Source of the DNA: Octopus vulgaris
Taxonomy: Eukaryota
Assembly (NCBI GenBank): GCA_951406725.2
Contig: OX597838.1
Coordinates: 42,098,001 to 42,162,000 of the forward strand
Length of the DNA: 64,000 nucleotides
Direction of reading: 5' to 3'
Below the pieces are notes generated by a model. It worked only from the letters and a program-made list of their open reading frames with translations, was not told where the DNA came from and searched no databases. This document shows positions 1 to 54,371 of this stretch, one piece after another (positions within the stretch are counted from its first letter, which is position 1; each line of letters begins with the position of its first letter). The position numbers and the translations under genes were made by a program.

Positions 1-362
1 TCATCATCAGCATTCTTCTGATGTTTCCAAGCAAGGTGATATTTGCCCCATGGCCAGAAATGTTTTCATGAAAGACTGGGAACGAATCACACCACTCGTA
101 TGAGAGTGACACTTGTTTACGCAATGTCAAGACAGGGTCTCTCTCTCACACATACACACATGGTTTCTTTCAGTTTCCGTCTGCAACACAAGGCACTGGT
201 TGGCTTAGGAGCCATAGTACAAAACACTTGCCAAAGTGCCATGAAGTGGGATTGAACTTGAAACCATGTGGTTGCAAAGGGAATTTCTGATCCACACAGC
301 CAAGCCAGCACCTGATGAAATGACAAAATGAAAACACAAAAAATTACTAAAAAGATATTTAC

Positions 363-457
363 TTTTGTTCGTAGATCCATGTCTTGAGATCTGGGCAGTT
401 TTGTAAGAGTTCCTTGGTCCATCGTTTCATAACATTTCTTATATCATCAAACTTACG
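363..457 (-). CDS. TRMT2A: TRMT2A coding exon 7 (RKFDDIRNVMKRWTKELLQNCPDLKTWIYEQK)
   Basis: Acceptor ttgcag, donor gtaaat; 95 nt, phase 0 to 2. Confidence 0.85.
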
Positions 458-3400
458 CTGCAATCAAAGAAAAAAAAAAGACAACTGGAAAGATTATAGA
501 AACCATCATAAAACAATGTTTCTGAGTGAAAGCAAGTGGTTTTGTGGTCAGGGTGTTGCATTTGCAATCATTAGATCATGGTTTCAGTTCCTACACAGGG
601 CACTGTGGAGTGTTCTTGAGCAAAACACTTTTTTGTGTGTTGGTCCAGTCCACTCAGCTATAAATGAGCCACCCTGTCACACACCAGCGTACCATTCAAC
701 AGGACTAAATTGATTTTGGTCACTTTTATACGACAGAGATAGTAACGAGTCTGACAAGGCCTACAGCTCAAGACAGAACGACTCCACATCTTTGCCTTTA
801 ATAAAAGCACAAACACTGTTCCCTTCCCCTTTAAATATCATGTACAGAAAGGGCTAGGTTGACTTTTTTATTTTTTGACATAAACCAGTGTCCAACACAA
901 CAGGAATTGTTCAGTCAACCAATTAAAACTTCTCTAAAGAATTTTAATGTGAGCCAAGAATTACAGAAATTCAGTCACAGCAGGAAGACCATAACCTCCA
1001 TGCGATTGAGGCAAAGTAATAAAACATTGACATTTCTGTATAGCTTGGTTCAAATGAGAGAGACTCAACCCTCTTGTTACCATATTTCTGTTGAAATTCA
1101 TGGCATTCTGTTTCAGTTAATTTTGAAAATGATGAAGAATTTAAGTAATATAACTTTATTATTATTATTCAGCTGAAAGATTTCAATTGAGATCTCTTGA
1201 AAACACCAAGTTTGTGCCATAGAACCACCAAGAGCAGGGTCAGGTGCCCTAGTATCAAAAGGGTTAAACAATCACGAAACAGAAACAGAGAGTCCTGCTT
1301 CAATAAACAAAACAAAACAAAGGTAACCAACTGTTTTCTGCTCGAGTATACCTGAGCTAAGACCACTTTTGATTGGCCTCTCTTGTGGTGACACTTCATT
1401 CTCAAAGATAGACATTCCTATACAAAGATTTATGTTTTTCATTTGTTTTTTTTCTAAACGATGATCTGATCATTATTTAAATGTACCTTATCTAATAATA
1501 ATCCCATCATCATCATTTAGAAACCCTATACACTCCCCCATTTCAAATACACAGAGGTAGGTGCAGACATGGCTGTGTGGTAACGAATTCCACTCTGCAC
1601 AGAACCAGTTGGTTCCAAGTTCAATCTCAGTGTGTTCTATTCTCTTAACCCTACTGACATGACTGAGCCCAGAGGGGGAAATCATTAAAGGAAATCCTGT
1701 CATTACATTAATTAAGTAGGTTTCACTGGCGATACTAAATTTCTGTTGAAAGTTTGGATTTATAACTAGAATTTGAAGCTGGTTGTAGAGTAAGAACTAC
1801 TGTGGTTAGGGGCTGCAGTTGTGTTGGTCATGTATTTAGAAAAGACAGCAGTTAGAATAAACTGCACTTTTTTTTATAGGGTTTGGGTGATTGAGGGCAT
1901 TCAGAAAACATTCTTTACCTTTAGTTGTTCCTCATATGTTAAGTCATACAGTGGCATCACAGCTTTTCTGACTCTGAAATGATAATAAAAACAATGTGCC
2001 CTACAGATTGGTTTCATGGAGTAACCCTGCAAGTCGAATTTCTATGCAACGAGTCATGCCCCCTTTTAACACCAACCATTTCACTGAGTGGACCAGGTTC
2101 TCACTATGTGGTACTAGTATGAGTGAGGTTACCAAGACAAGATCCCGTAACTGAAGGGAGGGAGTTTTGAAGGAGGAGGCTTCACACCAGGTGATGAGTG
2201 GTTAGAGAATAAGAGGACAAGAACAGGTTGTATTGCTGTAGGGGAGATACACAGCTACCCCAGTTGGAAGAAGAGGAGGAGGATACATCAGGGTATACAC
2301 CCTCAAAATAGAGCCAAATTTACACTTTCATAAACTACCACAACCATCATCATCATCATTTTAATATCTACTTTTCCTTACTTTGCACGAGTCAGATGGA
2401 ATGCATTAAAGTAGATTTTCTTTGGCTGGATGCCCTAACCCTAACCCTAACCAAGCAAGGGACTACTTTCCTCAGTGTTGGACATCTTTTCAAGGAAGAC
2501 TGGCAACAAATGACACCCATTTACTACTATCATGCAATGTCAAAGCAACGAGACACAAACACACCCACTCAGACAAGAAGCTTCTTTCATTTTCCATCTA
2601 CCGAATCCACTCACAAAGCATTGGTTGGCCTGGAGCTATAATAGAAGACCGAATGTCATATCAAGTGCTTGGGAGGCAGATTTAACCACACGACCATGCT
2701 TGCATTTTCATATATACATATATATATATATGTATGTGTGAAAACTTGGTAATGTAATAATTTGTGGGTAGAAGGACTTAGAATTGCATTTTCAGGTGAT
2801 ATTTGTAACTTACCTTTCATCGGGGGTCGGTTCATCATTAGCATCCACCAAGTCTTCAGATTCCTTAAACTTCTTAGCACTAGGCTCATCATTGGTTAAT
2901 CCTGTAAAACCAACAGGGATAAGTTGAATCAAATTGAACGGAAGAGAAACACTTTCATAGCAGTTAATTCTAATCTTTTTAAAAGACTTTGCTGTGTGGT
3001 GAAGAAGTTTGCTTCAGAACCATGTGTTCCTAAGTTCAATCCCATTGTGTGGCATCTTGAAAGGATGAAAGACAAAGGTGACTTTGGGAAGATTTCGACT
3101 CAGAAAGAAAAGAGCCTAAAGAAATGTTGCTAAGCATTCTTCCAGAAGGGCCAAGGATTCTGTCAACTGAAAGCCTTGATGATGATGACAATGATGATCC
3201 TTTCTACTCTAGGCACAAGGCCTGAAATTATGAGGAGAGGGGCTAGTTGATTACATTAACCCCCAGTGCTTGACTGGTACTTATTGACCCAGGAATGTAA
3301 AGCCAGGAGAAAAGCTGCTCAGCACTTTGTCTGGCATGCCTTAATAATAATAATAATAATAATAATCATTATCATCATCGTTTAACGTCCGCTTTCCATG

Positions 3401-6400
3401 CTGGCATGGGTTGGACGGTTTGACTGAGGACTTGCGGCTCCAGTCTGATCTGGCAGAGTTTCTACAGCTGGATGCCCTTCCTAACGCCAACCATCATCAT
3501 CAGGAATTGCAATACACCATAATCATCCTTTATAGTCATCCAAGGGAAGCAATGAAAATATGAACAAACAATTCACAAATACAACAACAAACAAAATAAA
3601 AGTTTCCTTTAATTTCATTTAACCCATTAGCACTCAGATTACTCTTATTTATTTACATTGCCTCAAATCAGTCAATGATGTGATTGTGTATTCTTTGAAT
3701 GACATTGTAGGGTCGGTGTAAGAGGCCAGATCTGACCTGTACAATATTTGGGGCATTTATGGCCGGTTTCAATGGTAAAGAGTTAACGTCCCTTAAAAAG
3801 TTCTCTCTTATATTTCTGAACGAATAAGCCTTTACCACTAAATCATGCAATAACTTGATGCAAGCAAGAGCAATGGCATACGAGCAAAGCACAGCACACA
3901 AGTTCAATTCCTAACCAAGTAACAAGAAGAATCATACTTTGATGATAATAATGAAAAATTGAAGCAACTAAATTGGGAAACATTAGAACTTACCAAAAGA
4001 TTTTCGCTTTAAAACCAAAGGATCAGCAGTTGGATGGGATTTCTGAAAAAGGGAAAAAAAAAATGGTAATAGATAATGCTTTAAAGATGAAATATTTCTA
4101 TTTTCTATATACATAGCACCCCCCCCCTATCTCCTATTGTTCCTCTCAGTAGAGCAGAGTTGTTTAGTCGAGAGAGTAACAAGGTGATGTCACTGAACAA
4201 GGTGGTGTCATGAAGGCAAAAAAGAAAAACCATCCAGTACCATCATCATCATCGTTTAACGTCCGCTTTCCATGCTGGCATGGGTTGGACGATTTTGACT
4301 GAGGGCTGGCGAACCAGATGGCTGCACCAGGCTCCAATCTTGATTTGGCAGAGTTTTACCATCAATCTTCAATTAACAGCTTCCTTCCATGCTGGCAAGG
4401 GTTGCATGGTTTGGCAAGATCAGGCAAGTCAGAAGACAGTGCTGTCTGCTTTGGCATGATTTCTATGGCTGGATGCCCTTCCTAAAACCAACCACTTTAC
4501 ATTGTGCACTGGGTGCCTTTTACGTGGCACCAGAACAAAAGTGTCATCAAGTAACTTGCAAGACAAACACCCCACCACCAACCAGAAGCGGGTATTGATG
4601 GAGTTGGTTTTGTGCCGGTTGATGAGAGATATGTCAGGATACCCCAACAAGATACAGGGGGGTGGGGTGTCCCCCTCTAACCCATTGGATTCTGTTCAAC
4701 CCACAACCCATGCCAGCATGGAAAGTGGATCAAAAGTAATGATGATGATGATGACATACATGTATAATACAAACAAACACATCTACTTAACCGTGATGAA
4801 AGGAGGAGTGTAAAATTTTAACTTCCAAAGATCAAGAGAAAACATGGAAAAGCCGAAGTTAAAACAATGATGAGAGAAGGCAATTCATAATTTACTTTAG
4901 ACACCAAGAAACAAGACGTCTGATAAAGAGACCCTAACAAGGCTAACGACAGTGCATTACAAGAGACATCAAGCGTATAAGTAAACTTCCTCTATTGAAT
5001 TTGCTAGGCCTGCTTTATTTAACGGAGAATGAGGATGATTGAAGTGGATACCCAGACAAAAGATGAATGGTTTGTCACAAGCACTTAATTCTTATTTCCT
5101 TATTGCCCACAAGGGGCTAAACATAGAGGAGACAAACAAGGATGGACAAATGGATTAAGTCAATTACATGGACCCCAGTGCATCACTGGTACTTAATTTA
5201 TCGACCCCGAAAAGATGAAAGGCAAAGTCAACATCGGCAGAATTTGAACTCAGAATGTAACGACAGACAAAATACCGCTAAGCATTTCGCCCAGCGTGCT
5301 AACGATTCTGCCAGCTTGCCACCTAGCACTTAATTTTGTCACCACAAAACCAAACATTTGATTTTCAATGGCCAAATGTCTCTAATTCTCAAAACAAGTG
5401 AACCAACCTTAGCAGTGACATCATGTCCTTTCCATTGGAATCGATTCAAAATGTTCAAAGCTTTCTCACGTGCTTCTTCATCCCTATAAATAGAGAAAAA
5501 CAAAAAGAACAAAAGTATGAACTGCAGCATATTCATAAATGGAATCGTCCATTTTAACCTTGTGTCATTCTTATTTCTGAACCTTCACCTTCTTAAAGGT
5601 ACCCTTCCCAATAAACTTCCTTGTTTTACCTTAGCACTGGCAATTCACAAGACATTTTTTTCTTTTTATATCAGCCCATTTGTCTTTCTTGTCAACCTGT
5701 TTTTGCCAGGCCCCTTTTGCAGTTCATTACTTGTCAATCTTAGACATAAATCAACACTAAACACTTACTAGAGCACATCCAACACACCCTTTCCTCTTCT
5801 CATACCAAGTCACATCATTACTCCCACAGTTTTACCCATTCCACGAAGAGAGAGAAAACTATTACGGCCAATACGGTTCCATGAATTTTAGTTCATACTT
5901 TACTTATTCATACACTTTGACTATTAACTACTTCTAACAATTACATCAACTGTACTGGCCGCTTCCTTCATCCTTTCACTTCTCATCTCCTTGCATAAAA
6001 CTACCTTCCTCAAGCCCCACTAAACTGAAAGGGATTTTAGTCTCTTACATGGTGACCCTACTAATACTGATGCCATAAAAAAAACAACCAGCCCTTTCTG
6101 TAAAATGGTTGGCATAAGGAACAGCATCAAACCATAGAAATCATACCAAAGCAAGCACTGGAAGTCAATGCAGTGCTTCGGCCGTTTGGAAACTGTTAAA
6201 TGGTTCAACCCATTGCAGCAGAGAAGATGGATGTTTACAAGATAAAGACGATGACACAATCGTTATTTCTGTTAACGCTTCTGGTACTAACCCACCCACC
6301 TGCTTTAAAGTGATCCATATTACAATTTTTCATTAAAAATTTCATGTTAACTTGTTCCAAACACCAGCTTAATAACGAAAAAAAATCCTTTTATCAAACT

Positions 6401-9400
6401 TTTGACAACTGGTGCTGGTTTGTTTACATCCCCTAATGTAGCAGTTTGGCAAAAGAGATTGTTAGAAAAACTATCAGCCTTAAAAAAAATAAGGTTGATT
6501 TGTTGGATTAAACTCTTCAAGACTGTGCTCCAGTATGGCCAGTATAATGACTGAAACAAGGAAAACACAAAAACTTAACATAAACACACACACACACACC
6601 ATGGCGAGAGAGGTGGGGGTTGAGGTAAGGTAACAGGACATAAATTAAGATGCAAACGAGAAATGAAAGGAGATGAAAAACAAGAGAGAAAACATCTTTA
6701 CCTGAACGTGACGAAAGCAAAACCTTTGTGTGGGAAACCTTTCACTTTGATTGGGTTCAGGTCAAGGTTGACCAGCTTCCTTTTCAGTTCCTGGGGAGAA
6801 AAAAAAAAAAAAAAGAAAACAGAAAAAAATAAACAATACAGATAAATAGAAATTGAAAATGTTCATTGTTTAACGGACTTTACACTCACACACCACCACC
6901 ACCATCACTGTTTTAAAGAAACCCACTTTTCCCAGCTTGTATAGGATCAGGTGGAATTTGCTGAGGTATATTCTCCATGACCAGATGCTCTTCATGTCTG
7001 GATATGTTTCCAAGGAAGAGGAGAAATAAATAACATTGCTCTTGTGAAACTCATTTACGTTTATTATTTAATCAAAGCAAGGACACACACACACATACAT
7101 GTGCCTGGCTCCTCTGATGAAGATATTGTGACTTTGCTATGTCAATCTACCAAAATTTGTATTCGTTGACATGTTGCCTTTGTTTATGTATATATATATA
7201 TATATATACCTACAATACTAACTTAATATTAGACTTCCTTGCATAATATACATGGTTATATCAACCAGTCATCGATTATCCAAAACAGCTGTAAAGATAG
7301 GACTTGTATGCACCTCTTCCTATAAATACATTCTTCACTGCCTTTCTACTTGTATATATACTGTATGTGTGTATGTATGTATATATCTATCTATCTAGCC
7401 ATCACCACCACCATCATCCAAAGCCCATATTCCATGCTGGCAAAGATTGAATGGTGTGACCGGATTTGATGGATCCAAGAACTGCATCATGGTTGAGTGT
7501 CTGCTTTGGCAAGATTTCTGCAGCTGGATGCCCTTCCTAATGTCAACCATTCTACAGAGTGTACCGGATGCTTTTCTCATACCATCAGCATTATATATGC
7601 ATGCATGTAGTACATGGGATTCCTTCATTCCCCATGTACCAATTCCATTCACAAGGCTATAATAGGAGAGACTTGTCTCAGATGCCACATGGTGGCATTG
7701 AACCTAAAACCATGCAGCTGGGAAACAAGCTTCTTAACCACACAGCCACCTTATCCCTATCCTTGCCTGCACATAATTAAGCAGAGATAATTGCAAGTAA
7801 CCTAAAAAAAAAACCTCATCAAAGAAGTATGTAGTCTAGGAACACCAAATAAGGACAAGTAATTAGGTGCAGAGATAATTGCTTGTAGACTCAAAAAGCA
7901 GTTTGCAAACAGTAGAGAGAAACGGTAAGGTAAAGAAAATGGATTGGACTAACGAGATCAAATTATTATTGCCAGTAACGACTAGATTTTAGACCACACA
8001 AATATAGACTCATAAAAAGATGGCAAGAGATACATTGTTATGGAAACATGCCTGGTCCATGCAAGGGGAAATGGTTACATCGATGATGATGATGATGACG
8101 ATGGTGATGACGGCGGCAGTGGTGACTGATTGCATACAAAGCAGTTGCACATCTTAATTAAGACCAGCAAAAATCTTAGCAAGAAAGAGAAAATACAGAT
8201 TTATATCTTTTATTTGTTTCAACTCATTGGACTGTGGCCATGCTGGGGCTTTACCTTCAAAGACTTTAATCAAACAAATTGACCCCCATTACAGTCTGGT
8301 ACTTGTTATGGGGATACAAACAAACCAATACTGGTTGTCAAGACGTGGACGGGTGGTGGCGGAACAGACATACACACAGTGGGCTTCCACACAGTTTCTG
8401 CCGATCAAATTTATTCACAAGGCATTGGTGAGCCCAAGGCTATATAGTAGAAGACATTTGCCTGAGGTGCCATGCAGTAGAATTGAACCCAAGACCACAC
8501 AGAGACGCCAGAAAAGCAAGCTCCTCTTAGCAAATAAAAAAGGCATTTTACATTTATTCTATGAAATCCCGTCCCTTAGGGCTCAGCAAGAGTGTGTCTT
8601 CCTTAAAAGCCACCAGACTTCCCAGCCCCACATGAGACCCCTTTCAGCACTCAAACGCAACAACAACAGTGCTTTAACTCTTTTGTTGTTACCATATTTC
8701 TCTTGAACTACTTTGCTTCTGCTTTCAATTAATTCTGAAAATAACGACAAACTTAAGAAAATATATTTGTCATTATTAAGACAGTGTTTGCAACAAATTA
8801 ACACAATTAATTTAAATCACTTTGAAACAAGAAGCTTGCATCATTAAAACCAGCAGAGGTAGTCTTAGGCAAGTTGGTATTAAAAGGGTTAATTACGAGA
8901 AAAGGAGAGAAAAAATTAACAGGTGCAAATGTGACTGTGTGGTAAGAAGCTTGCTTCCCAACCACATGGTTCTAGGTTCAGTCCCACAAAGTGGCACCTT
9001 AGGCAAGTGTCTTCTTTAACCTCAGGCTGACCTAAGCCTTGTGAGTGTATTTGGTACATGGAAACTAAAAGAAGTTCATCATATATATATATGTGGATGT
9101 ATGTATGTGTCTGTGCCCTAACCACGACCACCACCACTTGACAACTGGTGTTGGTGTGTTTATGTCGCCATAACTTAGCAGTTCACCAATAGAAACTGAT
9201 AAAATCAGTACCAGGCTTAAAAACGAAAAACCCCAAAAACTTCATCCAACTAAAAACTCTTCAGGGCGGTGCTCCATCATGGCCACGGTCTAATGATTGA
9301 AGCAAAATAGAAAGGAGAGGATAAAGGAAAACCTGACTCACAGAGAAACCAAACCTTGGTAAGTTTTGTATTTCTATCTTGAAAATCTCAGAAGTGAACT

Positions 9401-9716
9401 CATCTCTTTTGATGTAGGAATATTCATCCTGAATCACAGAAGTCTTCTTAGAATTTACATGTTGGTCACATTTGGAACTTTCTGTAGGTTTTGACTCTTC
9501 ATCTGTCATTGGAACATCAGGGGATATTGTACATTCTGCAACCGTGGAGTCTTCATTGTCTGCTAATTTTTCTTCACATGCAACCAATTCGTTACCATTT
9601 TTGATAAGTTCCACACCAGTTTCAGTTGTTAAAGAACCGTCATGGCTATTTCCCACTGAACTTCCAGCACTACCAATGGCATCGTTATTGGCTTCTTTTT
9701 CTGCACTCACTTCCAT
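363..9716 (-). CDS. TRMT2A: tRNA (uracil-5-)-methyltransferase homolog A, 5' part (spliced; continues beyond the window's left edge)
   Basis: join(9342-9716,6702-6790,5408-5483,3994-4042,2814-2901,1919-1973,363-457). All introns are GT-AG and phases are consistent. Translation contains YIKRDEFTSEIFKIEIQNLP, an RRM with KGFAFVTFR, ADPL, VMPLYDLTYEEQLKRK and WIYEQK, which are recognisable TRMT2A motifs. Confidence 0.92.
1069..1263. mobile_element. piggyBac-type MITE
   Basis: TIRs CCCTCTTGTTAC / GTATCAAAAGGG, flanked by tcaa and ttaa. Related copies at 8678-8888, ~6270-6400, ~24715-26380, ~33690-33840, ~38470-38620 and ~48270-48465. Confidence 0.6.
1919..1973 (-). CDS. TRMT2A: TRMT2A coding exon 6 (VRKAVMPLYDLTYEEQLK)
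   Basis: Acceptor tttcag, donor gtaaag; 55 nt; matches the conserved V-x-PL...Y-x-EQL motif. Confidence 0.9.
2814..2901 (-). CDS. TRMT2A: TRMT2A coding exon 5 (LTNDEPSAKKFKESEDLVDANDEPTPDER)
   Basis: Acceptor ttacag, donor gtaagt; 88 nt; its phases bridge the neighbouring exons exactly. Confidence 0.85.
3994..4042 (-). CDS. TRMT2A: TRMT2A coding exon 4 (KSHPTADPLVLKRKSF)
   Basis: Acceptor tttcag, donor gtaagt; 49 nt; ADP motif following the RRM. Confidence 0.87.
5090..5324 (-). mobile_element. tRNA-derived SINE (family A)
   Basis: Head GGCAAGCTGGCAGAATCGTTAGC...GAGTTCAAATTC with a B-box, and core CTTTCATC-TTTCGGGGTCGATAAATTAAGTACCAG. A near-identical copy is at 59270-59506 and many decayed copies occur elsewhere. 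Confidence 0.8.
5408..5483 (-). CDS. TRMT2A: TRMT2A coding exon 3 (DEEAREKALNILNRFQWKGHDVTAK)
   Basis: Acceptor ttatag, donor gttggt; 76 nt; C-terminal half of the RRM. Confidence 0.9.
6702..6790 (-). CDS. TRMT2A: TRMT2A coding exon 2 (ELKRKLVNLDLNPIKVKGFPHKGFAFVTFR)
   Basis: Acceptor ccccag after poly-T, donor gtaaag; 89 nt; RNP1 motif KGFAFVTF. Confidence 0.92.
8678..8888. mobile_element. piggyBac-type MITE
   Basis: TTAA on both sides; termini CTCTTTTG / AAAAGGG; homologous to 1069-1263. Confidence 0.6.
8921..9310 (+). mobile_element. tRNA-derived SINE (family B), near full-length
   Basis: GTGTGGTAAGAAGCTTGCTTCCCAACCACATGGTT..GGTTCAGTCCCAC head, internal (TA/TG)n, and tail GGCGGTGCTCCA.CATGGCC. 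Many fragments occur across the window. Confidence 0.75.
9342..9716 (-). CDS. TRMT2A: TRMT2A first coding exon (acidic N-terminus plus start of RRM)
   Basis: ATG at 9716 with an upstream in-frame TAA at 9762-9764. The exon's acceptor (ttttag) places its start at 9782, so it also carries 5'UTR. Donor gtgagt at 9341. Confidence 0.9.
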
Positions 9717-10404
9717 CGTGTCATCAATATTCAGATCACAGCCTGACTTTTTGGTCTCTTTTTAGTAATTTCGTTTTTGATTCTAAAAAGAAAGAAAAAA
9801 AAAACTAAAGGTAAACAAAATAACAAAACATTGAGAGAAAAACATAAAAGTTAGGCACAATCATGGCTGTGTGGTTAAGAAGTTTGCTTTCCAACCACAT
9901 GGTTCCGGGTTCAGTCCCATCATGTGGCATCTTAGGTAAAGTTACAAATGTATAAATCCAAGAATAAGACACTGTCTTTATTTACGAGGAGACGGACATT
10001 AATATTTTTGAACTGAGTCACCAATTGTCTGTCTGTGTTAGGAAACTGAGGAAGCCCACAGCATCTACATATACGAGTGGGGTTGTTGTTTGTCCCCACT
10101 CCTTGATAACCGAGGAGAGTTTCTTTACAGCCGCAAAATCCAATGGCTTTGGGCAAAGAGACCAACAGAAGTTACCAGACTTTAGAAATCAGCGAATGGG
10201 GTTAATCTGTTCAACCAAACCGTTGTCTGAGTTGAATCTCAATTTTCCCTTTCACTTCTTCAAAGGAGGTTCAAACACACGCACCCACATATTGATGGCC
10301 GTGCTTGTTTGTTTATTCTGCTCACACATGAACATGCTCATTGGAGAACTATGGGCATATATTTATGCACAAACACACACAGATAGATAGACCGATCGAT
10401 CGAT

Positions 10405-12458
10405 ACCTCAATGACAGAAGACAATGATGTTCTCATCGAGGCAGGGAACTTCAATGACCATGTTGGAAAACATGGTTTTCATGGCATGGCTACAGATTTT
10501 GTTCTAGAAATGAGGCGGGAACAAAGATGCTGGAGTTCTGTGATGCAAGTGATTTAATGGTTTGCAACACTCAACTTCAGGAAACCTGCCAGCCACCTAA
10601 TCCTTTCTCAGTCTGGTGGGCACACTAGCCAGATAAACTACATCCTCATCAGGACAGGCGTATGCTCGTGAATGTAAAGTCTCTCCCATGTGAAGAATGT
10701 ACAACTCAGCATAGGTTAGGGGTTAGCGACTTTGGACTTACGGGTAGAAGGAGGCCGAGACACAAACCAATATAGAAAAGGAGGTTATGGAAGCTCAAGG
10801 ATCCTTCGAAAAGGCAGAGATTTAGAGATGTCCTTGATGAAGCTTTTGATGAGAAGGAGGTAAGGATGGAGACATATGACATAGAGGACAACTGGAAGTT
10901 CTTGTGGGACAATCAAATGGGGGCAACTAAGCATATCTGCGGTTGGAGCAAAGCTTTCTCCAGACCAAGGGTGACATGGTGGTGGGACAGTGAGGTCAAT
11001 AGGACTATAAAAGAGAAGAGATGGGCTTGGAAAAAGTGGAAGGGTTGGGGAAGCAAAGAACCATATCATATGAGATAGCTAAAAGAGAAGCTAGGTGTCA
11101 GGTATATCTAACAAGGGCAGCAGCCAAAAGGAAGAGGTTTGCCAATGTCTTACAGCACGAAGATCAGAGACTCGAGGAATCAAGATGGTGTGAAAGAGAG
11201 AAGTGTGTACGGACAGATAATGGTACGGTTGCTCTTAGCGATCCTGAAAAGAAAGAAACCTGGAAGAGATACTATGAAAGACTTAAATGTAGAAAATGAA
11301 TGGGAGAAAGAGAGTCTTGTGCATGTGAACCCAACAGAGGGACCAGCTATCCTAGTAGACAGCAGCATGATAGATGAGACAAAGATATGAAAACAGGGAA
11401 GGCCCCTTGTCTATCAGGTGTCACTGCTGAGATGATTAAGATATCTGGTAGAGTTGGATAGTCACTCAGATTATTCAGGGAGAGTCCCTAGTGACTGATG
11501 CAGAAGCATCATAATCAGCTGCCACAAGGGCAAGGGAGATGCCTTGGCTAGAATTATAGGGGCATCAAATTGCTGGACCAGGAGATGAAAGTTACAGAGA
11601 GAGTTATGGCCCAATTAATTAGGATGAGAATTAGACTAGATGGCTTTTTCCACAGAAAGAAGCATCACGGATATTATTTTCATAGTCAGACGACTGCAAG
11701 AAAAGTATTTAGCTAAGAACAAGCTGTTGTACTTGGCATTTGTTCATCTAGAGAAAGCCTTCAACAGAGTGCCTTGGTCTGTGATATGGTGGTCACTGAG
11801 GAAGCTAGGGATAGACGAATGGCTTCTGAAAGTAGAACAGGAAATGTATGGAGGTTCTATTAGTAAGATAGAGTTAACAGCCATGAGTACAGTGATGAAT
11901 ATAGCATATATGTAGGCATTCACCAAAGCTCAGTCCTCAGCCCCCTCCTATTCATCATTATCCTCCAGGCTATAACAGAGAAATTTAAGACTGGAGCTCC
12001 ACGGGAACAACTATATGCTGATGATCACAGCAGAATCTGTAATAGAATTAGAAAAGAAATTCTAGATGTGGAAAAGGAAGCTGCAATGAAAGAGTCTTAA
12101 AGTAAACTTAGCGAAAACCAAGGACCCTTCACCCATCAGGTAAATGGCTCTGCTTGACATGTAGGAAGGGTGTCAGCAGGAATTCCATTTGGTGTACCCA
12201 GTGCAAGCTATGGATACACAAGAGGTGCAGTGGAATAAGAATAAGATGGAGAAAGTTCAGAGAGCTTTGACCTCTGTTGGCAACCAAAGGTCTCTCTCTG
12301 AGTGAAAGGAAGATTGTATGATGCACATGTATGGACAGCAATGCTACATGGTAGTGAGATGTGGGCCCTGAAAACAGAGAATATACGAAGACTAGAGAGG
12401 AGCACAGCTGCAATGCTCTGCTGGGTGTGCAATGTCAGTGTGCATGAGTGACAAATGT
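10405..12458 (+). mobile_element. Decayed RTE-clade LINE (APE endonuclease end plus RT)
   Basis: Frameshifted motifs AGNFNDHVG, GTKMLEFC, TWWWDSEV, YRGIKLLD, TDIIFIVRRLQEKY, LAFVHLEKAFNRVP and LYADD. Confidence 0.9.
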
Positions 12459-12479
12459 ACAGGTGCAGTTTGCATGTCA

Positions 12480-14057
12480 ATAGTTAATGGGTTGTAAACA
12501 CAGCTCAAAATTATTTTTCTGTATTTCAAAGCAGGAAAACTCTGAGAATTTTCCCCCAACTTAGTCACCGCACCTCTGTATGATAAGGCTTGTCACCAAA
12601 CTCTGAATCTATTTTCGGCAAATAAACACTGAAATTGGTGGGGATTAAAACCTTTGGCCCTAATAAAGTTGATGGTTTGTGTGACAGTGCTCATTACATG
12701 TTCCATGTTTAGGACTTTACCACACAGCAATCCTTGGTGTATGATGCAGGGATATGCTATCAACTCACCAGTATAGTCCTCCTGCATCGTTAACCACATC
12801 CTTCCTCCTTGTCCACTTTTTTTGCTGCACATCGCCATTATAAGTCCAACAAGTTTGCTCCAAGCCAGATTCACATCAGTTATACTTTGACATATGTTGT
12901 CAAAAATGTCTTTTCCTGTCATTGTCTCATGAATGGATTTCATGTCCAATATTTCTTTTGTAACATTTAAACTGGAGTCCACTCCATGGATGAAGATGGT
13001 GAGCTGTGCAGTGTCAGCCAATCATTACTTTCAACAACAAGAGAATATGCAACAAAATCTTTGTCCTTTTCAATCAGTGACCATCTCACAAACTCAATCA
13101 GCAATTGTATTTCTGCTAAGGCTTACATTTGCAAACATCTCCTTTTCGTCTGGACACAAGCCGTCACACAAAAACATCCGCTGTGATGTTAGGTTCCTCT
13201 TCAATTCTTCTGCCTTCATCATCATCATCATAATCGTTTAACGTCTGCTTTCCATGCTAGCATGGGTTGAATGATTTGAATGAGGGCTGGCAAGCCTGAT
13301 GGATGCATCAGGCTCCAATCTTGATCTGGCAGAGTTTCTACAGCTGGATGCCCTTCCTAACGCCAACCACTCCGAGAGTGTAGTGGGTGTGTTTTACGTG
13401 CCACCAGCACGGGGGCCAGTCAGGCGATTCTGGCAATGACCTCGCTCAAATCTTTTTACACGTGCCAGTGAAGCGACGTTGGTAACGATCACGCTCGAAT
13501 GGTGCTCTTGGCACCCTGCTCTGCAATTTGTCTTGATTAGTCTTGTAGTGCCTTCGTAGATTATATTCCTTGATCACAGTCACATTATCTCCACAAATTA
13601 GACACACAGGTTTACCGCCAATATCAGTAAACATATATTGAGCCTCCCAGTGGCATTGAAAGGCTCTGTTTTCAGAATCAACTTTTCTCTCGGTCATTTA
13701 CTAGCTAGCTTTGATTTAAAATTAAGACTGTGCATCTATTGATAGACGATTGATATGGCATAAACGGGAAGGAGTGATGCAATATCTGGGCACTACACTA
13801 CTTTCATCTCTTATGTGCCAATCTAAAATGAGCAACAGGATGTTGCTAGGTTACTGTAATGATGAACATCCATGCACTACACAACTTTCATCTTAACTTG
13901 TTCTGATCGATGCAGGAATGCTCTCTGGCAGCTTTTTGTTCGACAAGGCTGTTAAATTGTGGTTTGCACTTCATATTGCCAGGCCATTAAAAAATATTTG
14001 TCTAAAATTCTGTCGTGGGCCAGATGTGGCCTGCAGGCCTTGAGTTTGACACCTGTG
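12480..14057 (-). mobile_element. Truncated hAT-Charlie (SPIN/OC1/GTF2IRD2-like) DNA transposon
   Basis: ORF pieces RKVDSENRAF..W...KPVCLIC...KEYNLRRHY, DTAQLTIFIHGVD, CIIHQ..LC and NFIRAKGFNPHQF. Terminus CACAGGTGTCAAACTCAAGGCC at 14057 lies next to a Charlie-type target site CTCTAGAG (14058-14065). Confidence 0.88.
13217..13515 (-). mobile_element. RTE 3'-tail repeat inserted into the hAT ORF
   Basis: (CAT)n followed by CGTTTAACGTC.GCTTTCCATGCT...CTGGATGCCCTTCCTAACGCCAACCACTCCG. Confidence 0.8.
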
Positions 14058-14541
14058 CTCTAGAGAGACAAAGTTTCAGCAATGTTTATATCCTTAGAGG
14101 ACACACACACACGTGTGAAAGAGATAGTCCCCCCCACCGCCCACTAAATTCTTTTGTTTGATACAGGATAATGGTAGATGTTTAAAGTGTTGCACATTGG
14201 GATCAAACCCAGAACTGTGTAGTCACATAGATAACATTTTAACTCTCCGGTTACTCTTAACCTTATTTTTGTCATGGCTCCCTTAAGAACTCTGTTCAAG
14301 TTTCCAAGTCTCCCTGTGGAACTGAGTAAATTTCTTCACCTCATTTCCCCAACACAGACAGACAATCGGTGACTCAGTTCAAAAATATCCGTCTCCTCGT
14401 AAATAAAGACTGAGTGTCTTATTCTTGGATTTATACATTTGTAACTTACTCAACCCACCAGGGGTCCTGGAAGGATGAAAGACAAAACTGACCAGAATCA
14501 TGGGAAGTGGAACTTAAGGATCAAAACTAAATACAATGCAT

Positions 14542-15640
14542 GGATCTGTTCAGTTTGGCTCACAGATTTTTTTATTAAATTTTTTTTTAACTAAACAGTC
14601 TGAAACTTTGTATACTGGTGGAATGTCTCATGCAGAACATGGTTTACTTTGAACATTTTTGACAAAATTTTGTATTTTAGAAGTTATTTCGTGTTAAAGT
14701 TGTTGTATTTGGGTAATTTCAACCAACCAACGACGTGTATTTGGTTGAAGAAAGCTACTGCTGTTTGCGATTGTAATCAAGGAAGAACAACTTCTGGGTC
14801 ATCTCTACTAAATATCACCACTCTGTTCTATTCGTATGTCCAGTGAAGACGATGCCACCTTTATCCTTTCTAGTCAACACCGTGCATTCCTTACTCTTTT
14901 CCTATCAACTAGCAACCAGTGAGCAAACTTGTCACAGCCACTACAATTACTGTATTTTCCGGTGTCTAAGCCACTAGTTTTGTTTTACCTTTGTGTTTTG
15001 ATGATGTTATTTTTAATCTAATAAAGACTTTTATATTGACGAAATTTGTTGATTATAATGAAATAAAATCATGACAATAACAATACATCTCATAGATGTA
15101 AAATAAGGCATTTTGAAACTACGTCAACAACAAAAAGCTAGCTGTGGACTGGTAGCTCTATAGGTCTTTTAAACACTGGTGCACTTTGTGTGTGGATAAA
15201 ACACTGATATGGGACAAACAAATGAATATATGTAAAGAATCTTATTTTTTCCTTCCTGGTGTTGATTCTTCAATGTTTACTGGTGACTCTGACGCGAGAA
15301 CAAAAAAAAAAAAAAAAAAGAAAAAGCATGCAAAATGCAACACAGGCAGGAAACAAAAAATAAAATAAAACAGAATGGTGACATTTAGGAGAGATGACCC
15401 AGAAGTTGGTGCTCTTCTTTCGATCACAATCGCAAACAGCAGTAACTCTCTTCAACTGAATACACGTCGTTGATTGTTACTCAAATACGACAACTTTAAC
15501 ACGAAATAACTTCTAAAATACGAAAGTCTGTCAAAAAGTAAACCGTGTTCCGCAGGAGACATTCTACCAGTATACAAAGTTTCAGACTGTTTAGTTTAAA
15601 AAAAAAAATCAGAAATCTGTGAGCCAAGCTGAACAGATCC
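14542..15640. mobile_element. Merlin-like foldback MITE with ~290-bp TIRs
   Basis: GGATCTGTTCAG(T/C)TTGGCTCACAGAT at both ends in inverted orientation; homologous to 24829-26268. Confidence 0.75.
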
Positions 15641-15914
15641 CAATTTCCACCAAACCTTTACTGTTTTTCGTTTTTCATTAAATGAAATATTCCTTCCATT
15701 TCTGTGATTGCATTTTGTTCTCCGACAGAAGCACATCGCTCCCGATGTTCTATTGTTTAGCTCCAAATCAGCCTCGATCGAGCAGACTTACTATGATCAA
15801 AAGCTTTTCCAACGGGAATCGACCCAACCACAAATACCTAAGATGCCACACTATCCAATGTGTCATTTCTCTATGACGGTAACGAAGGATCTGAGGGAGA
15901 TTCGGCTGCTACTG

Positions 15915-16423
15915 CAGATTGGTGCCCATTCGAATTTGTTTCCCTATAAGTTTCTGACAAACACATATTTTAAAATTAAATTTTAAAGATACGCTTTGGA
16001 AGGTAATGTCGATAACTTTAAAAACTCGCCAGAGATTTTCAGTTTTGGATAATTGCTTTCCCCCCCTCGCGATTTTCCTTCCTCATAACGCTCTTTAAAA
16101 AGCACATTTTTTTAATGACATTCTACAAAGATACGTTTTCAAAAGTGTACATTACATAATATTGATGATTTAGACATAGGTCTGAAAAGCAAAAAAAAAA
16201 AAAGGAGAAAAGTGCTAAAATTACCAAAGTTAGTGGTAACGAAATCTGGACAAGGAAAAAAAAACCGATTTGAAACTTCTTCGAAAAAGCCTTTTTTGTC
16301 TAAATTTTACCAGCATAAATGTGATTTAAATCCGCGAAAATATATTTCTGAAAAATGTCATTAAAAAATATGCACTATTCAGAAAATTGTGAAGAAACAA
16401 AGTCAAAGTGGGGCACCAAACTG
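15915..16423. mobile_element. Tc1/mariner-type MITE
   Basis: Imperfect ~28-bp TIRs CAGATTGGTGCCCATTCGAATTTGTTT / AAACAAAGTCAAAGTGGGGCACCAAACTG, flanked by tg and ta. Confidence 0.45.
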
Positions 16424-17988
16424 TAGATAGGCCCGATGCTCCGCGTTTACCTAAATACTGTAGATTAATAATCATCTCTTGGGTAGCCTCAAGGCCTATA
16501 GATTAACGATATACATTACTATCAAAATTGACAATGATAAATAAATAAATGTCAATAACTATCGTATATAATGAATAACTGACCCTGTGATCTAGTTCCT
16601 CGTGTGTTCACTAATGAGCCACATGGCCATGATACCAACCAGAATATAAGGAATTTATAAAACCGATGACGCGGCAAAATAAATATTTCAAATCTATAGA
16701 TTTTATCCTATAATAACAATATAAATTTGAAAAATCATAAGCCATCAAATTTGCGAGGGTGATGCGTTAGTTGATATAAAAGAATTCGGATCTCAGCAAA
16801 TAAATATTTTCGAACAAGGCCGAGTGCAGCAAAGTGGATTTGAAAGAAATATAAAAAAAAATCGCAAATGTCCCCTCAAATAATTTCCCCGATCCTCTTA
16901 AATAAAGAACAAATTCGACAATGTAGTTTCTTTATGTATCTATACACGTATAAGACAAGATGGTCACAATTGGAACGGTTTTGATCATAGATCCAACCGA
17001 ACACGGAGGCGATTTCCGGCTTTATGTTTAATAAACACCATATGTACACCTAAAATATATGAAGACGGGTATCCTCGCTACCACGGTCCTAAGATCACGT
17101 TGGTCTTTTACTAGGGTCCAATAGATAAGCATCCCGGGGGAGGGGGACACTTATGTAGGTATATCTTCTATATATATATTATACTTGGTCGGTGGTAAAG
17201 AACACGTACACCACCCTGAAAAGCTTAACTAAAATGCCAACCCTAAACACCGGGTATACGTAGTCTTTACTTTCGCCACATCTACAAATTTGTGCCGGCA
17301 AGTTTATTACGGGCAAGAAGTTCAGTCGACCCACAGCGAAATCTGGACATGGAACAAGAAATACATTGAAATAAGGAATTAATCGGTTTTACATTAAGAT
17401 ATTCATTCGTTTAAAAGAATTAATGAAAATAACAAATCCAAAAACGAAGTCGCAATCCCTTTGTAACTCAACGAGAAAGACATGAATACATAACATTTAT
17501 AAGGCTTATATAATAGGGGCAATTTGGATTTAAAGGCATAGAAACGAAGAAGCGCAGCCAAAAGAGAAAATTTGAATTTAAAACCGTGAAAGAAATGAAA
17601 TAAAGTCGAAACGCCTCAACTGGAAACTCTGATTAAATCTAGAAGAATAAATGATTAAATATTGAGACATCGCTTTTAAAATGGAGCTAATTCAGTGTTT
17701 TATGAAAAAGTTGGTTTTTGGATAAATTAATGTTTTTTGTTTTTTTTTCCCAAGATTTTTTCTCTTTTAAAATGTTTTTGGCGTCTAAAAAGTTGTTTTT
17801 GGGAAAGTTTTGGTCGAATAAAAGCGAGAAGTGCGAGGAAAAAAAGTTGTTTTGCTGAGCTTCCATAGAAAATCGACCAATAACAATAAACATTTGTGTT
17901 GTATCTCGTAAATGATTAAATATGAAAAGAGAAAAGGAAATAAATGCCGAGTTATTCGCGGCAAGAAGAAGACTTTTCCCATTTTTAC

Positions 17989-18070
17989 CTTTTTGCGACG
18001 AGCGAAGCGTTGAAATATTGTTGTTGTTGGTCAACAAGGTGACACGCATACAGAGCCACCACTTTTAGTT
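17989..18070 (-). other. TRMT2A: Candidate non-coding first exon of TRMT2A
   Basis: The ATG exon begins with an acceptor, so an upstream exon is required. A donor AAG|GTAAAA lies at 17989/17988 in CpG-rich, repeat-free sequence. The TSS position is only approximate. Confidence 0.5.
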
Positions 18071-18330
18071 TACCATAGCGGTATCCTCTGTCTTTTTTAA
18101 TATCGATAAGATATTACAGTTTAAAACGAGAAACATTTTTTTGAACAATATATTTAGATCTATAAAATTCAAAATTCAATATATTGAATAGAAAAAAAAT
18201 ACAAAACCAAAATAATCTCACCTTCTCCGAAACTACAAAATGACTCGTTAGTTCCCCTGCTTTTGAAACCAGCGGGAATCTTTGTCCAGAGGAGATTGTC
18301 TTTTATAATCTTTAACCATCTGCATCGAAA
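17990..18330. promoter_or_regulatory. Putative bidirectional promoter of TRMT2A/RANBP1 with a DRE palindrome (TATCGATA, 18101-18108)
   Basis: Lies between the candidate TRMT2A exon-1 donor and the RANBP1 ATG; repeat-free; perfect DRE motif. Confidence 0.55.
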
Positions 18331-18345
18331 ATGGCTGATGACAAG
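18331..18345 (+). CDS. RANBP1: RANBP1 first coding exon 1a (MADDK)
   Basis: aaaATGGCTGATGACAAG|gtaaat; phase 0 matches exon 2. Confidence 0.75.
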
Positions 18346-21300
18346 GTAAATTTCCACTTTGATGGATTTTACAAATATTCTTCTTGTTTTAGAAATATTC
18401 TTGATGCATTCTTGCTTGTTGTTCTAGACAAATACTATGTTTTAAACTTTTATATAAAGAATAACGTGGTTGGGGGTTAGAGTTTTAACTTATCTCCAAT
18501 TGTTAATAATTCTGCAAGAAATATCCTATCCTTATGTCTCTTCTCCTTTAAACTAGTTTTATAATTTAATATGGCTTACAAATTATCCCGTTATTGTTTT
18601 ATTTCCAATATCAAACCCCGAACGACCCCTTCGTTCCCGAAGCCTTTCTCTCCTCAGATGAATGGATGAAGAAGCTTTACCACAATTTCAAACTTTGCTC
18701 CTGCAAAAACCACTTTGAACCGATTTCTATTCCAGTTTAATGCCTCCGCAGCTCATCAAGTGTTGTTGAAGTGTGTCTATGTTAAAAATAAAATGTCTAA
18801 ATATTCTCCGAACCCATTTTACTGCCAGACGTATTTCTTCAGACTCCAAGACTCGTGTCTTGTGCTGAATCCTGAGAGGCGCCTAATTTCTCTGTTTCTC
18901 TCTAGAATAATGTAAATACTTCCATTCACAGACACACTGCTGCTCTTCCATCTTCTATTAAACACAAACAAATCTGCGACCAGTGAATGTTGCTCCTCAC
19001 CATTCTCTTCATAATTATTATTATTATTGTCTCTTTTCTTCTTTTTTATTTATTAAAACTGAATTTCTTGCATTCTTAGAAAGTTTCTTAGATTCATTTC
19101 GCTTTCGCTTCGATTTTACAATCTTATAAATACTAAATTATTTTGAAGCAAACTTGAAGCATTCTTGGAGTTACCATTTATTTGAAAACCTTATTCATTC
19201 ATCTTTTATTTGCTTTCACAAAACATTTTTCGTTGCTCTTTTCTTTTCTCGTTTACATCCACAAATTATTTGCTCTAAATTTATCAACTTCCAGACGTTT
19301 TATTAACTCTCTTTCGCTTTTCTTCCCCTGAAATTATCCACCATTTACTGCAAACGAACTTTTCCTTTCCCCCGTCTTCTTTGCTATTATTACCCATCAG
19401 TGGTTTTTTTTTTGTTGTTGTTTTTGTGGTGGTTGGGGGAGCAGGGTTCCCCCCCCCTCTCGACACTTCTGCCATGGTTTCCATATTGGTAAGTCATTCA
19501 AAAACTCACGCACACAGATCCTCACCCCTCTCTTCGTCTTTCCTTCAAACATGCCTCCGTGTTTTTCTATCGCAACCGAGATCAACGATTGTAAAAATAA
19601 ATAAATCCTCTAAACTATATTTTTAATCATTTGAGGCGTCCATAAAGATAAAAGACATTATTATTTCCCAGGGGTGTGACGCAAGTGTACCCTAAATCCC
19701 GGCAGTGGGAGTGCTTATTATTTGGCAATAGTACAAAGAATCCAAAGCAACAAGCCTATATCATCTTGCCCATTAATTTTTTTTTTTTTTGTTCTTTGGT
19801 TATTATGGACGTGAGATTGCAACATAAGATACTGAAATGTTTTGCGAATTTTATTCGTTGTCTGGAACAGCAGGGAGTGTTTTATTATATTTTCGTATTT
19901 TGTTTTCATTGGCAAAATATAAGCATTGAATGCCAGCAATTACGATCAAATTATAGTTTGTTCGTTAGGCTGTGTGTAATAGAAGCAGTGCCCCCCATAA
20001 CCTATTGTATACTCCTATGCTGGAAGACAAGTTTAACTGGATGAAGTTAAATGAATTTCTGCTCTAAAACCGAATGAGTAAATCAGAAGGAAGCCATTGT
20101 TGTTTTTATTGTTTGAAGTTGATGCCTGATTTGTGTTGGTTGTGATTTCAGGTGAAAACCATTGAGAATAATGCTGAGGATGTTGTTGAAAGTCCAGAGA
20201 TACATTTTGAGCCAATCGTGCAGCTTGCCCCAATTGATGTGAAAACGATGGAGGAAAATGAAGAGGAACTTGTCAGACTGTAAGTTGTATTGGTTTTTCT
20301 TTCTATATATATGATGGGGGCCTGTAGCTGTGTGTGCTCATATTACCTTGTACAGGTGCACCAGGGATTTTCAGGTGTCATTGATTCCAAAACCTTGAAC
20401 TAAATGTTTTGCTGTATCATCCTTGGCCACATAACCCTAAACTCGGATCTTTTCGGTTTGAACGGCAGTTTTTTCTAGTGGTGTCATGAAATTGTCACCC
20501 ATAATTATGACCCTAGAATCGATCTATTGCATTTCAATCTCTTTTGGGGTTAGGGGTGAGGGAAGGGTATCTTTTGTTTCATAAACGAGGGACATATTCA
20601 TACGGCACAGAATGTTGTTTACCTCAATAGATGTCATTGATTGGTTGAAGTTGCAGAAATTGAAGAAAAACAAAACAAATATCTTACAAACTATAGAATT
20701 TTCTCAAAGTCAAGAGAAAAAGATGTTTTATAAACACATTCTACCAGTATACGAAGTTTAAAATTTTTTAGTTACCTAGAAATTGTTAAAAACTGCCATT
20801 CAAACCGAAAAGGTCCCTTAACTATTCTATCTCTTTCCTTCTCATCCCAAACGATAAACAGATGCCTTAGATATTGCACAGCTTACAGTCCTTCTGTATT
20901 CAATAGTCCTATTTGGATTGTTATAGATTGGTGTTTATGTTGGATGCTGCCACTATTGCCTGCTGTTCTTTTATTTGCTCTTAGTCATGGTAAGAGTAAC
21001 TTTAAACTAAATAAAAAGAGGATCTCTAAAATTGTATTGTTATTAATATGTGCATGGTTATTAAGGCATCTAAATACATGGAACACAGTGCCACCTGTGG
21101 TTGCATAGTGAACTAGGCTTGTGGCTGAGAATTTGAAGCTCCTCTTTGTAACTTATCCATAAGATGCTGAGAAATCAATGGTGTACCAGTGGATAGTGTG
21201 TGTGTGTGTATATATATATATGTGTCTGTGTATGTGTATGTATATATATGTGTGTATGTATATATATATGTATGTGTGTATGTATATATATGTATGTGTG

Positions 21301-46500: not shown

Positions 46501-47005
46501 GACGTTCATAAAAAATAAAATGTAAAATGTTTTGTTTTTTGTTTTTGAAAGGCACACTATATTTTATAATCATAGTATATATAGTTTCTCACACAACAAT
46601 TACAATATATTTATTTTAAATCGTTCATCTTTCTCCCCCCCCTCTCTCTCTCACACACATTACTTTGGGTGCGAAAGAGTTTTGTTTTTATTTTACACCA
46701 AGTAAAAAAGTGTTTTGTTGACAATCCATTTATTTAACAACAAAGAAACAAAAAGGTGAGTAACAATTTGTCAGTGAATTACATACTATAATTGGGTACA
46801 ATTTGTGAGGCTTCCAGAGTAGTTGATTCCATGCAAAAAAAAAAAGAATTTTTTTTCTTAGTGAAAATCGTGCAAGTGTTAATCTACAAATTTAACAACA
46901 TTTTTACCATTCATTTCTGTTCATGAAAATGTATGCATGCACATGTTCAATAGGTGTACGTACGTACGTGTGTGTATATGTGTTCGTGTCTGTTGCCCAT
47001 ATATA

Positions 47006-47038
<33 letters not shown>

Positions 47039-50000: not shown

Positions 50001-50418
50001 TCATAGAAGCTCTAACATGGGGAATCGAGCAACATGTAACCGAATGCAGCCAAGGGACTGAATTAAAATACTACATACACATGTACATGGAACAGACAGA
50101 CATGTGAAGGAAAGGGTCATCGTCCAGCTGTGTGCTAGAAGAGACAATGTAGGGTTTGAGAAGGCATTTTAGTCTGAGAGTAGGGCAATGCCAATCCCTA
50201 TAGTGGTGCAGGCTTCCATAAAACTGCATCCAAAACACTCAGTAAAGTGGTTGGTGTCAGGAAGGGCAACAAACAGTAGAAACCCAAAAAGGAAACAGCA
50301 GAGCAAAACATGGCCCTCCAGCATCTTGGAATTCTATGAAATTGTCCTAAACATGCCAATGTGGACAGTGGACATTAATGATGACGAAGACAATGATTTC
50401 CTTTTTCGTTTTATATTG

Positions 50419-50455
<37 letters not shown>

Positions 50456-53829: not shown

Positions 53830-53863
<34 letters not shown>

Positions 53864-54330: not shown

Positions 54331-54371
<41 letters not shown>

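Follow-up and report, generated by a model that had tools for sequence, protein, structure and literature searches.

Divergent TRMT2A and RANBP1 genes with closely spaced 5' ends in Octopus vulgaris: a gene pair with a probable shared promoter, likely inherited from the mollusc–vertebrate ancestor

TRMT2A and RANBP1 on opposite strands

The window considered here, a stretch of 64,000 nucleotides of Octopus vulgaris DNA, carries two genes that point away from each other (Table 1). The minus-strand gene encodes an RRM-bearing TRMT2A that matches the O. sinensis protein at 98%. Residues 108–184 of the protein (P0001) match the RRM structure of human TRMT2A (7ntn, E 6.6e-13), and Pfam RRM_1 scores above its cut-off; the RRM exons lie within the window, while the gene extends about 18 kb further, beyond the left edge. 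The protein matches PF05958 (E 5e-19), and the FFQ, SAM-binding, DPPR, catalytic Cys and catalytic Glu motifs of the catalytic domain were all found in alignment with RlmCD structures. In a tree of 23 TRMT2A-named proteins, built without a TRMT2B outgroup, the gene clusters with other cephalopod sequences with a support of 1.0. A second TRM2-like locus, on C22, which we take to be TRMT2B, has no RRM match in about 60 kb upstream. By protein sequence, the minus-strand gene is the orthologue of TRMT2A, not TRMT2B, with methylation of tRNA U54 as its predicted function.

The plus-strand gene is RANBP1. Its six exons account for 223 of 223 residues of a protein with a single PF00638 domain (E 3.1e-49). 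Exon 3 scores 73–74 bits against RanBP1 chains, but at most 59 against single RanBP2 domains, so that the gene resembles RanBP1 more than it does RanBP2 domains. The other two Ran-binding matches in the genome lie in long open frames on C27, at 48–51%. The identities proposed in the initial annotation are thus supported for both genes, by protein and domain comparisons, the TRMT2A tree and the RanBP1 versus RanBP2 scores. The right-hand neighbour of RANBP1 is SETD6.

Table 1. Features of the TRMT2A–RANBP1 locus (window positions).
Feature	Position	Strand	Remarks
TRMT2A exons 3–8	362..6790 overall	-	Coding; tblastn limits, about 6701–6790, 5408–5482, 3992–4045, 2813–2902, 1904–1975 and 362–457
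TRMT2A exon 2	9342..9782	-	Start ATG at 9716; ends where the RRM begins
TRMT2A intron 1	9783..17988	-	8.2 kb, GT-AG; RT-bearing and hAT-like transposon fragments
TRMT2A exon 1	17989..18081	-	Non-coding 5' UTR, minimum extent; spliced contigs
CpG-retaining stretch	15001..18750	.	Observed/expected (o/e) up to 1.47; GC 34%
Gap between 5' contig ends	18082..18221	.	140 bp, 20% GC; putative core of a shared promoter
DRE palindrome	18101..18108	.	TATCGATA, perfect; candidate site, sole copy in the window
RANBP1 exon 1	18222..18345	+	Minimum extent; ATG 18331, five codons, donor after 18345
RANBP1 exon 2	20152..20279	+	
RANBP1 exon 3	28003..28157	+	First half of Ran-binding domain
RANBP1 exon 4	32572..32700	+	
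RANBP1 exon 5	34254..34325	+	
RANBP1 exon 6	35338..35510	+	Through stop codon

First exons and the gap between them

The first exons were placed with contigs from four runs. Their RNA origin is a guess, no listed run being recorded as RNA, and the end of a contig does not mark a transcription start site. In three of the four (X7, X12 and X20, from three studies), TRMT2A contigs end at 17989 with a 30-letter loose end that equals window positions 9753–9782, so that exon 1 is spliced to exon 2 from this donor, the best candidate of the initial annotation. Coverage of exon 1 reaches 18035, 18039 and 18081 in the three runs. Going by the loose ends listed, RANBP1 exon 1 joins exon 2 in at least two of the four runs (X9 and X20), and its coverage in X20 extends back to 18222. 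With the two 5' contig ends at 18081 and 18222 in one run, the gap between the genes is at most about 140 bp. The RANBP1 ATG lies 342 bp from the TRMT2A donor, close to the 340 bp first estimated.

The two genes are set head-to-head, one on each strand, with 5' ends less than 1 kb apart and no intervening gene, as the initial annotation had it; TRMT2A intron 1 alone intervenes. The contig evidence covers 16900–18700, and TRMT2A may have an alternative first exon within 9783–16899. A non-coding exon and a long first intron in TRMT2A put 8.6 kb between the two ATGs. Exon 1 is taken as non-coding because an in-frame stop directly precedes the ATG at 9716; it contains two upstream ATGs, neither of them in frame with the main ORF. 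The contigs support 5' ends near enough for one common promoter.

No 250-bp bin from 17283 to 20152 had a repeat match against 524 kb of flanking DNA, and 17800–18345 was single-copy in a genome search that skips very common words. In TRMT2A intron 1, an RT fragment and a Spin-doc zinc-finger (hAT-like) fragment were found, and no other gene was seen. The description of a transposon-free core amid transposon-rich introns holds for 17283–20152; intron 1 is rich in repeats, and a short one occurs at about 17239–17278, 0.7 kb into the intron. CpG o/e is mostly 0.1–0.5 in both gene bodies, compared with the peak over the shared 5' region, which is likely, from its CpG content, to be an unmethylated promoter region. 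This agrees with PMC9476566, in which octopus genes have methylated bodies and unmethylated starts.

The DRE palindrome lies at distances of 20 and 113 bp from the two 5' contig ends. DREs are tied to proliferation genes. The chance of a DRE per 140 bp is 0.3–1.1% in Markov simulations (2–6% for a looser consensus), for one of 14 motifs tried. In 524 kb, only one of 15 CpG-retaining stretches contains a DRE, and there is no enrichment: of six TATCGATA copies one falls there, a share that does not exceed that of control palindromes. The DRE by the paralogue falls within apparent LINE sequence, and run X7 includes a low-depth contig with a T>C change within the octopus DRE. The palindrome is a weak lead, and a role as a shared activator site of both genes would be speculative; no publication was found on DRE use in molluscs. 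The strict E2F consensus, TTTSSCGC, is absent from 17701–18500; a single loose match, at 17777, is intronic. No strict Sp1 consensus occurs in 17.7–18.5 kb, and no promoter motif common to the octopus and mammalian loci was found.

Occurrence and origin of the pair

The same adjacency is found in another octopod and across jawed vertebrates, in line with the ancestral linkage first suggested. The genes are represented by consecutive accessions in Argonauta (GAB1607959 and GAB1607960, on one contig) and in the frog Engystomops (GDO81_002256 and 002257), and in the elephant shark Callorhinchus TRMT2A (XP_007899968 and 970) is beside RANBP1 (XP_007899972); consecutive accessions show adjacency, not orientation or distance. 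The O. vulgaris accessions are also consecutive, but were not counted as independent, being possibly from the same or a close assembly.

A survey of 64 genomes, none from a mollusc, listed the divergent pair in eight of nine vertebrates (Davila Lopez 2010, PMC2871058, Tables S5 and S3) and in none of nine invertebrates (Ciona, two nematodes, three dipterans, Daphnia, Nematostella and Trichoplax). Invertebrates are seldom listed in its table at all, with eight rows for Ciona, two for Daphnia and none for Nematostella, and in a further study the RANBP1 homologue is absent from fly and worm. Fugu is listed by Davila Lopez 2010 without a match in the Fugu files of Li et al. 2006, and the positive was accepted. 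In zebrafish, the pair is split, with the genes 5.5 Mb apart. The vertebrate-type neighbours are not kept in octopus: TANGO2 is on C28 and none of 23 DHHC matches is on C25, although these searches give lower bounds, split genes being poorly detected by family profiles: PF05958 found nothing in the genome where the TRMT2A protein query did.

TRMT2A was found at none of 80 metagenome RANBP1 loci, an uninformative count, as only seven are at least 3 kb long and most are transcript-like. The best 150 matches listed in a 50%-cluster search included only multi-domain RanBP2-like proteins, cluster look-ups for eight invertebrate-like RANBP1 sequences (seven of them in the collection) gave no named members, and no species was represented by both genes among the invertebrate accessions obtained. 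No published report of the pair in molluscs was found in a search that took in the main text of Irimia 2012; TRMT2A had no match in the supplements of PMC9023564 and PMC13508932, and Table S4 of PMC2871058, possibly missing from the files searched, gave none.

The lineages compared are vertebrates and octopods, and inheritance of the pair from the bilaterian ancestor of molluscs and vertebrates is likely. Among 924 human divergent pairs, an estimated 0.02 would recur by chance under full shuffling; had every pair remained on a single chromosome, the number would be about 0.7 at most. The estimate assumes about 20,000 genes, and 700 per chromosome.

The reading we favor, at a probability of roughly 65%, is that TRMT2A and RANBP1 are transcribed in opposite directions from points about 140 bases apart or less, likely under a common promoter, and that the pair likely goes back to the mollusc–vertebrate ancestor. 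It starts from the observed gene identities, exon structure, spliced first exons, small gap and nearby CpG retention, and the remaining steps are inferred. One open, unmethylated housekeeping promoter would fire both ways, perhaps, more speculatively, with the DRE at 18101 as a shared activator. Insertions into the gap, harmful to two broadly needed genes, would be purged by selection, keeping the gap tiny within a transposon-rich genome. Rearrangements would then seldom hit it, and the pair would persist while its neighbours were shuffled away. The genes would share their promoter and a context of housekeeping or proliferation, but their proteins need not act in one pathway. Survival through the cephalopod rearrangements is weak evidence of function, because a break separating the genes intact would have to hit the gap, and because 275 ancient microsyntenic blocks persist in Euprymna.

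It is unlikely that the ancestral pair was kept because cell-cycle co-regulation is useful, with an S-phase switch turning up Ran-cycle capacity along with tRNA m5U54 methylation. In its favour, two E2F sites give the bidirectional mouse promoter its growth regulation, according to a review (PMC9857238), the octopus gap contains a DRE, the DREF site of active, often head-to-head fly promoters (PMC12302907), and ancient microsyntenies are on average co-expressed in squid and octopus. However, the human genes are not significantly correlated in expression (r = 0.20, p = 0.14, from the only data set that gave a value), their GO similarity is 0.14, and both the zebrafish split and the motif results above count against it. 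The initial proposal that the pairing couples Ran-dependent transport and mitosis to m5U54 methylation is not supported, in view of the split, the correlation and the missing strict E2F site. It is quite doubtful, too, that the Htf9 unit is a bilaterian-age proliferation module whose genes stayed joined while its switch was rewired, with E2F sites in mammals and a single palindromic DRE, read both ways by a DREF-like factor, in octopus; if true, a mollusc would for the first time show a sign of DRE-type promoter control, and a bidirectional promoter would have outlived its own transcription-factor code.

That the genes were joined on two occasions, once in the vertebrate line and once in octopods or coleoids, aided by a shared ancestral chromosome and a tendency of housekeeping genes to share promoters, is very unlikely. 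It would account for the lack of a common promoter motif and for the negative invertebrates of the 2010 survey (PMC2871058), but these are mostly from fast-rearranging lineages, where not many ancient pairs survive (12 in nematodes, 46 in flies and 54 in Ciona). Coleoids did gain 505 new microsyntenic blocks, and clade-specific head-to-head pairs exist, such as EIF2S1 and V-ATPase subunit D in vertebrates (PMC13508932). Nevertheless, the same genes, divergent orientation and sub-kilobase gap would all be required twice, with an expected count below one per genome against hundreds of inherited pairs. An artefact, either a misjoin or the first exon of another transcript, is largely refuted: the nature of the runs is guessed and both junctions occur together only in X20, but the TRMT2A exon 1–exon 2 junction is exact across three studies, a single X7 contig crosses the gap (18012–18222), a separate Argonauta annotation has the same gene order, and there is not one N in 524 kb.

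Comparison with known bidirectional pairs

RANBP1–TRMT2A is a classic mammalian bidirectional promoter, located inside the 22q11.2 deletion. The pair is on record as vertebrate-only (PMC2871058), and the octopods likely move its origin back to the protostome–deuterostome ancestor. In practical terms, the gap offers an AT-rich candidate cephalopod promoter that is small enough to dissect and compare with that of mouse.

In mouse Htf9 (Ranbp1, or Htf9-a, and Trmt2a, or Htf9-c) and at human 22q11.2, the same orthologues diverge as in octopus. The 5' ends are 256 bp apart in human and -23 in mouse, against at most about 140 bp in octopus; the human coding sequences are separated by 744 bp, against 8.6 kb between the octopus ATGs. 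TANGO2 and DHHC genes are not near the octopus pair, unlike at 22q11.2. The mammalian Htf9 promoter is a GC-rich CpG island; a CpG-retaining 5' region is common to both, although GC is low in octopus. The mammalian promoter is E2F-regulated (PMC9857238), while the octopus gap has a DRE and no strict E2F site. In Drosophila DRE/DREF and BEAF-32 promoters, TATCGATA likewise lies between divergent housekeeping genes.

A general parallel is offered by conserved ancestral microsyntenic pairs, or CAMPs (PMC3514665, Irimia et al. 2012), for example HSP60/HSP10, in which unrelated genes are likewise joined 5' to 5' across a short gap in distant phyla. RANBP1–TRMT2A is not in the main text of that study, and CAMPs require four or more major lineages, whereas the octopus pair is so far known from two. 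The octopus pair is likely a further example of the known ancient shared-promoter pairs, which number in the hundreds.

Gene identities and the shared 5' region

The window (G000:C25:42,098,001-42,162,000) lies within a 2.8-Gb genome of 227 contigs, and its proteins match Octopus records, which bears out the octopus origin proposed in the initial annotation. The minus-strand exon at 9342-9716 shares 98% identity with the beginning of TRMT2A isoform X3 from O. sinensis (P0001), the remainder of which maps collinearly onto exons extending about 18 kb to the left of the window. The octopus protein has intact catalytic motifs and an RRM, detected by Pfam and by a match to the human TRMT2A structure 7ntn. 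Its last exon terminates in short Glu/Pro/Val/Cys-rich units repeated in tandem, in a number unlike that of the O. sinensis protein. RANBP1 encodes one Ran-binding domain, which scores higher against RanBP1 than against single RanBP2 domains. SETD6 is arranged tail-to-tail with RANBP1, with a CpG-retaining stretch of its own at 56.5-59 kb.

Translation of TRMT2A starts within exon 2, where an in-frame stop precedes the ATG, so the first exon can be found from transcripts only. Contigs from four sequencing runs, guessed to be RNA, were placed over 16900-18700. In three of the four, from three studies, contigs break off at 17989, where the next 30 letters are those that begin exon 2; this junction was not seen in the fourth run, X9, which carries another organism label. 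The loose ends listed show the junction between RANBP1 exons 1 and 2 in two of the four runs. Although the RNA nature of the runs is a guess, the junctions are spliced and the 5' region is single-copy in the genome. Contig cover reaches 18081 at the furthest for TRMT2A and extends back to 18222 for RANBP1, leaving a gap of at most about 140 bp. These contig ends are not start sites, and the true starts may be closer together or overlap. The head-to-head arrangement proposed in the initial annotation is real, and more sharply defined than it was there.

Matches to repeats fill much of the interval 9.8-15.7 kb, with one further short segment near 17.2 kb, and no bin from 17283 to 20152 has any. 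The inverted copies in TRMT2A intron 1 are likely dispersed repeats in opposite orientation. A 40-bp stretch at 17,239-17,278, common to many unrelated contigs in three runs, is a short repeat within the CpG-retaining region. The CpG observed/expected ratio rises to 1.47 across 15.0-18.75 kb, compared with mostly 0.1-0.5 in gene bodies. This peak fits an unmethylated start beside methylated bodies, a pattern described for octopus in the sections available of PMC9476566. Upstream ATGs in the TRMT2A 5' UTR, one of which opens a 35-codon uORF spanning the exon 1-2 junction, may damp translation.

Features of the TRMT2A-RANBP1 region and TRM2-family relatives (window positions unless a contig is named)
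Feature	Position	Strand	Remarks
Perfect DRE	18101-18108		sole copy in window; six in 524 kb
Three upstream ATGs, TRMT2A 5' UTR	18076, 18049, 9724	minus	
Inverted copies, TRMT2A intron 1, pair 1	14,560-14,800 and 15,410-15,640		seen by eye and as repeat cover
Inverted copies, TRMT2A intron 1, pair 2	9,940-10,010 and 14,380-14,450		seen by eye and as repeat cover
RANBP1		plus	six exons; 223/223 residues of annotated octopus RANBP1 recovered
Broken piggyBac-like transposase, RANBP1 intron 3	~29,200-30,400	minus	PF13843, E 8.9e-20
SETD6	~45,100-58,100	minus	E 6.7e-18 to PDB 3qxy
Last TRMT2A exon	G000:C25 ~42,079,900-42,080,400 (locus L005)	minus	
Tandem TRMT2A paralogue	G000:C25 ~42,049,000-42,077,000 (loci L004-L009)	minus	21-49 kb left of window, directly downstream of TRMT2A
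Third TRM2-family gene	G000:C22:47,369,000-47,386,000 (loci L134-L136)		no RRM match

TRM2-family relatives

The tandem paralogue of TRMT2A has no RRM, and its FFQ, SAM-binding, DPPR and catalytic-Glu motifs are altered while the catalytic Cys is kept. The same changes are found in O. bimaculoides and Argonauta, and the Argonauta paralogue likewise has a consecutive accession. A tree joins the paralogue, which has a long branch, to the octopod TRMT2A sequences with support 0.86. It is likely an octopod duplicate retained as a catalytically impaired pseudo-enzyme, and is possibly more novel than the gene pair itself. About 155 of its residues lie in a single exon (G000:C25:42,060,183-42,060,655, within L007), compared with several exons in TRMT2A; one reading is intron loss via partial retro-conversion. 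The third family member, on contig C22, is probably TRMT2B.

Ancestry of the pair

TRMT2A and RANBP1 are side by side in Argonauta and elephant shark, where their accessions follow one another on one contig, and the frog Engystomops likewise has them under consecutive accessions. Such numbering is evidence of adjacency, not orientation. In the portions available of Davila Lopez et al. (2010), the divergent pair is recorded in human, mouse, chicken, Xenopus, Fugu, Tetraodon, stickleback and medaka, or 8 of the 9 vertebrates surveyed and none of the 9 invertebrates, in a table that seldom lists invertebrates at all and samples no mollusc, annelid, amphioxus or echinoderm (PMC2871058). Excerpts of Li et al. 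(2006) give distances of 256 bp in human and -23 in mouse, and a head-to-head pair in chicken (PMC1487180). According to part of Guna et al. (2015), zebrafish trmt2a and ranbp1 are separated by 5.5 Mb, and a RANBP1 homologue was not found in fly or worm (PMC4487986). A literature search, with most matches judged by title or start of abstract and the supplement of Irimia et al., the likeliest prior record, outside its coverage, returned no description of the pair in non-vertebrates; neither gene is named in the main text and two supplements of Schultz et al. (2026), as far as these were accessible (PMC13508932).

Octopus TANGO2 was located on contig C28, not C25, and none of 23 DHHC matches fell on C25 (genome searches, both lower bounds); thus, as far as these searches reach, octopus shows the pair without the rest of the 22q11.2 block.

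The adjacency could also have arisen twice by chance. We estimate, assuming about 20,000 genes in all and 700 per chromosome, that complete shuffling would bring a given pair back head-to-head with a probability of about 1 in 40,000; with both genes confined to a single chromosome this becomes 1 in 1,400. Among 924 human pairs, 0.02 to at most 0.7 chance recurrences per genome are then expected. Against these low numbers stand hundreds of inherited pairs, and the 275 ancient blocks that Euprymna has beside 505 new ones, as stated in the available text of a 2022 study (PMC9023564). We put inheritance from a common ancestor at roughly 85%, which would likely extend a gene pair famous in vertebrates back to the bilaterian ancestor.

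Probable shared promoter and proposed functional link

The most economical reading of the pair's persistence is a shared housekeeping promoter, which would tolerate interruption poorly and, being so small, would seldom be broken. The initial annotation had proposed a co-regulated unit linking Ran transport and mitosis to tRNA methylation. This finds no support in what the analysis covered: evidence of a selected functional link is thin, given a human expression correlation of r = 0.20 (p = 0.14), a GO similarity of 0.14 and the zebrafish split. Ranbp1-null mice have a normal Trmt2a level, according to the accessible part of a review (PMC6554986).

The gap contains a perfect DRE, the Drosophila-type palindromic element bound by DREF. 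Its chance per 140 bp is 0.3-1.1%, for one among 14 motifs tried; it occurs in only 1 of 15 CpG-retaining stretches, and its sequence is changed in one low-depth contig. The fly proteins DREF and BEAF-32 bind sites of this kind at active promoters, frequently ones that lie between head-to-head genes, as described in the text available of PMC12302907; our literature search found no papers on DREs in molluscs. On sequence grounds the octopus element is a candidate site, a lead rather than a result.

The mouse Htf9 promoter is under E2F control, according to sections of PMC9857238, whereas a motif scan of the octopus 5' region (17.7-18.5 kb) found neither an E2F nor an Sp1 site matching the strict consensus. 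The octopus pair is one more case within a known class of gene pairs.
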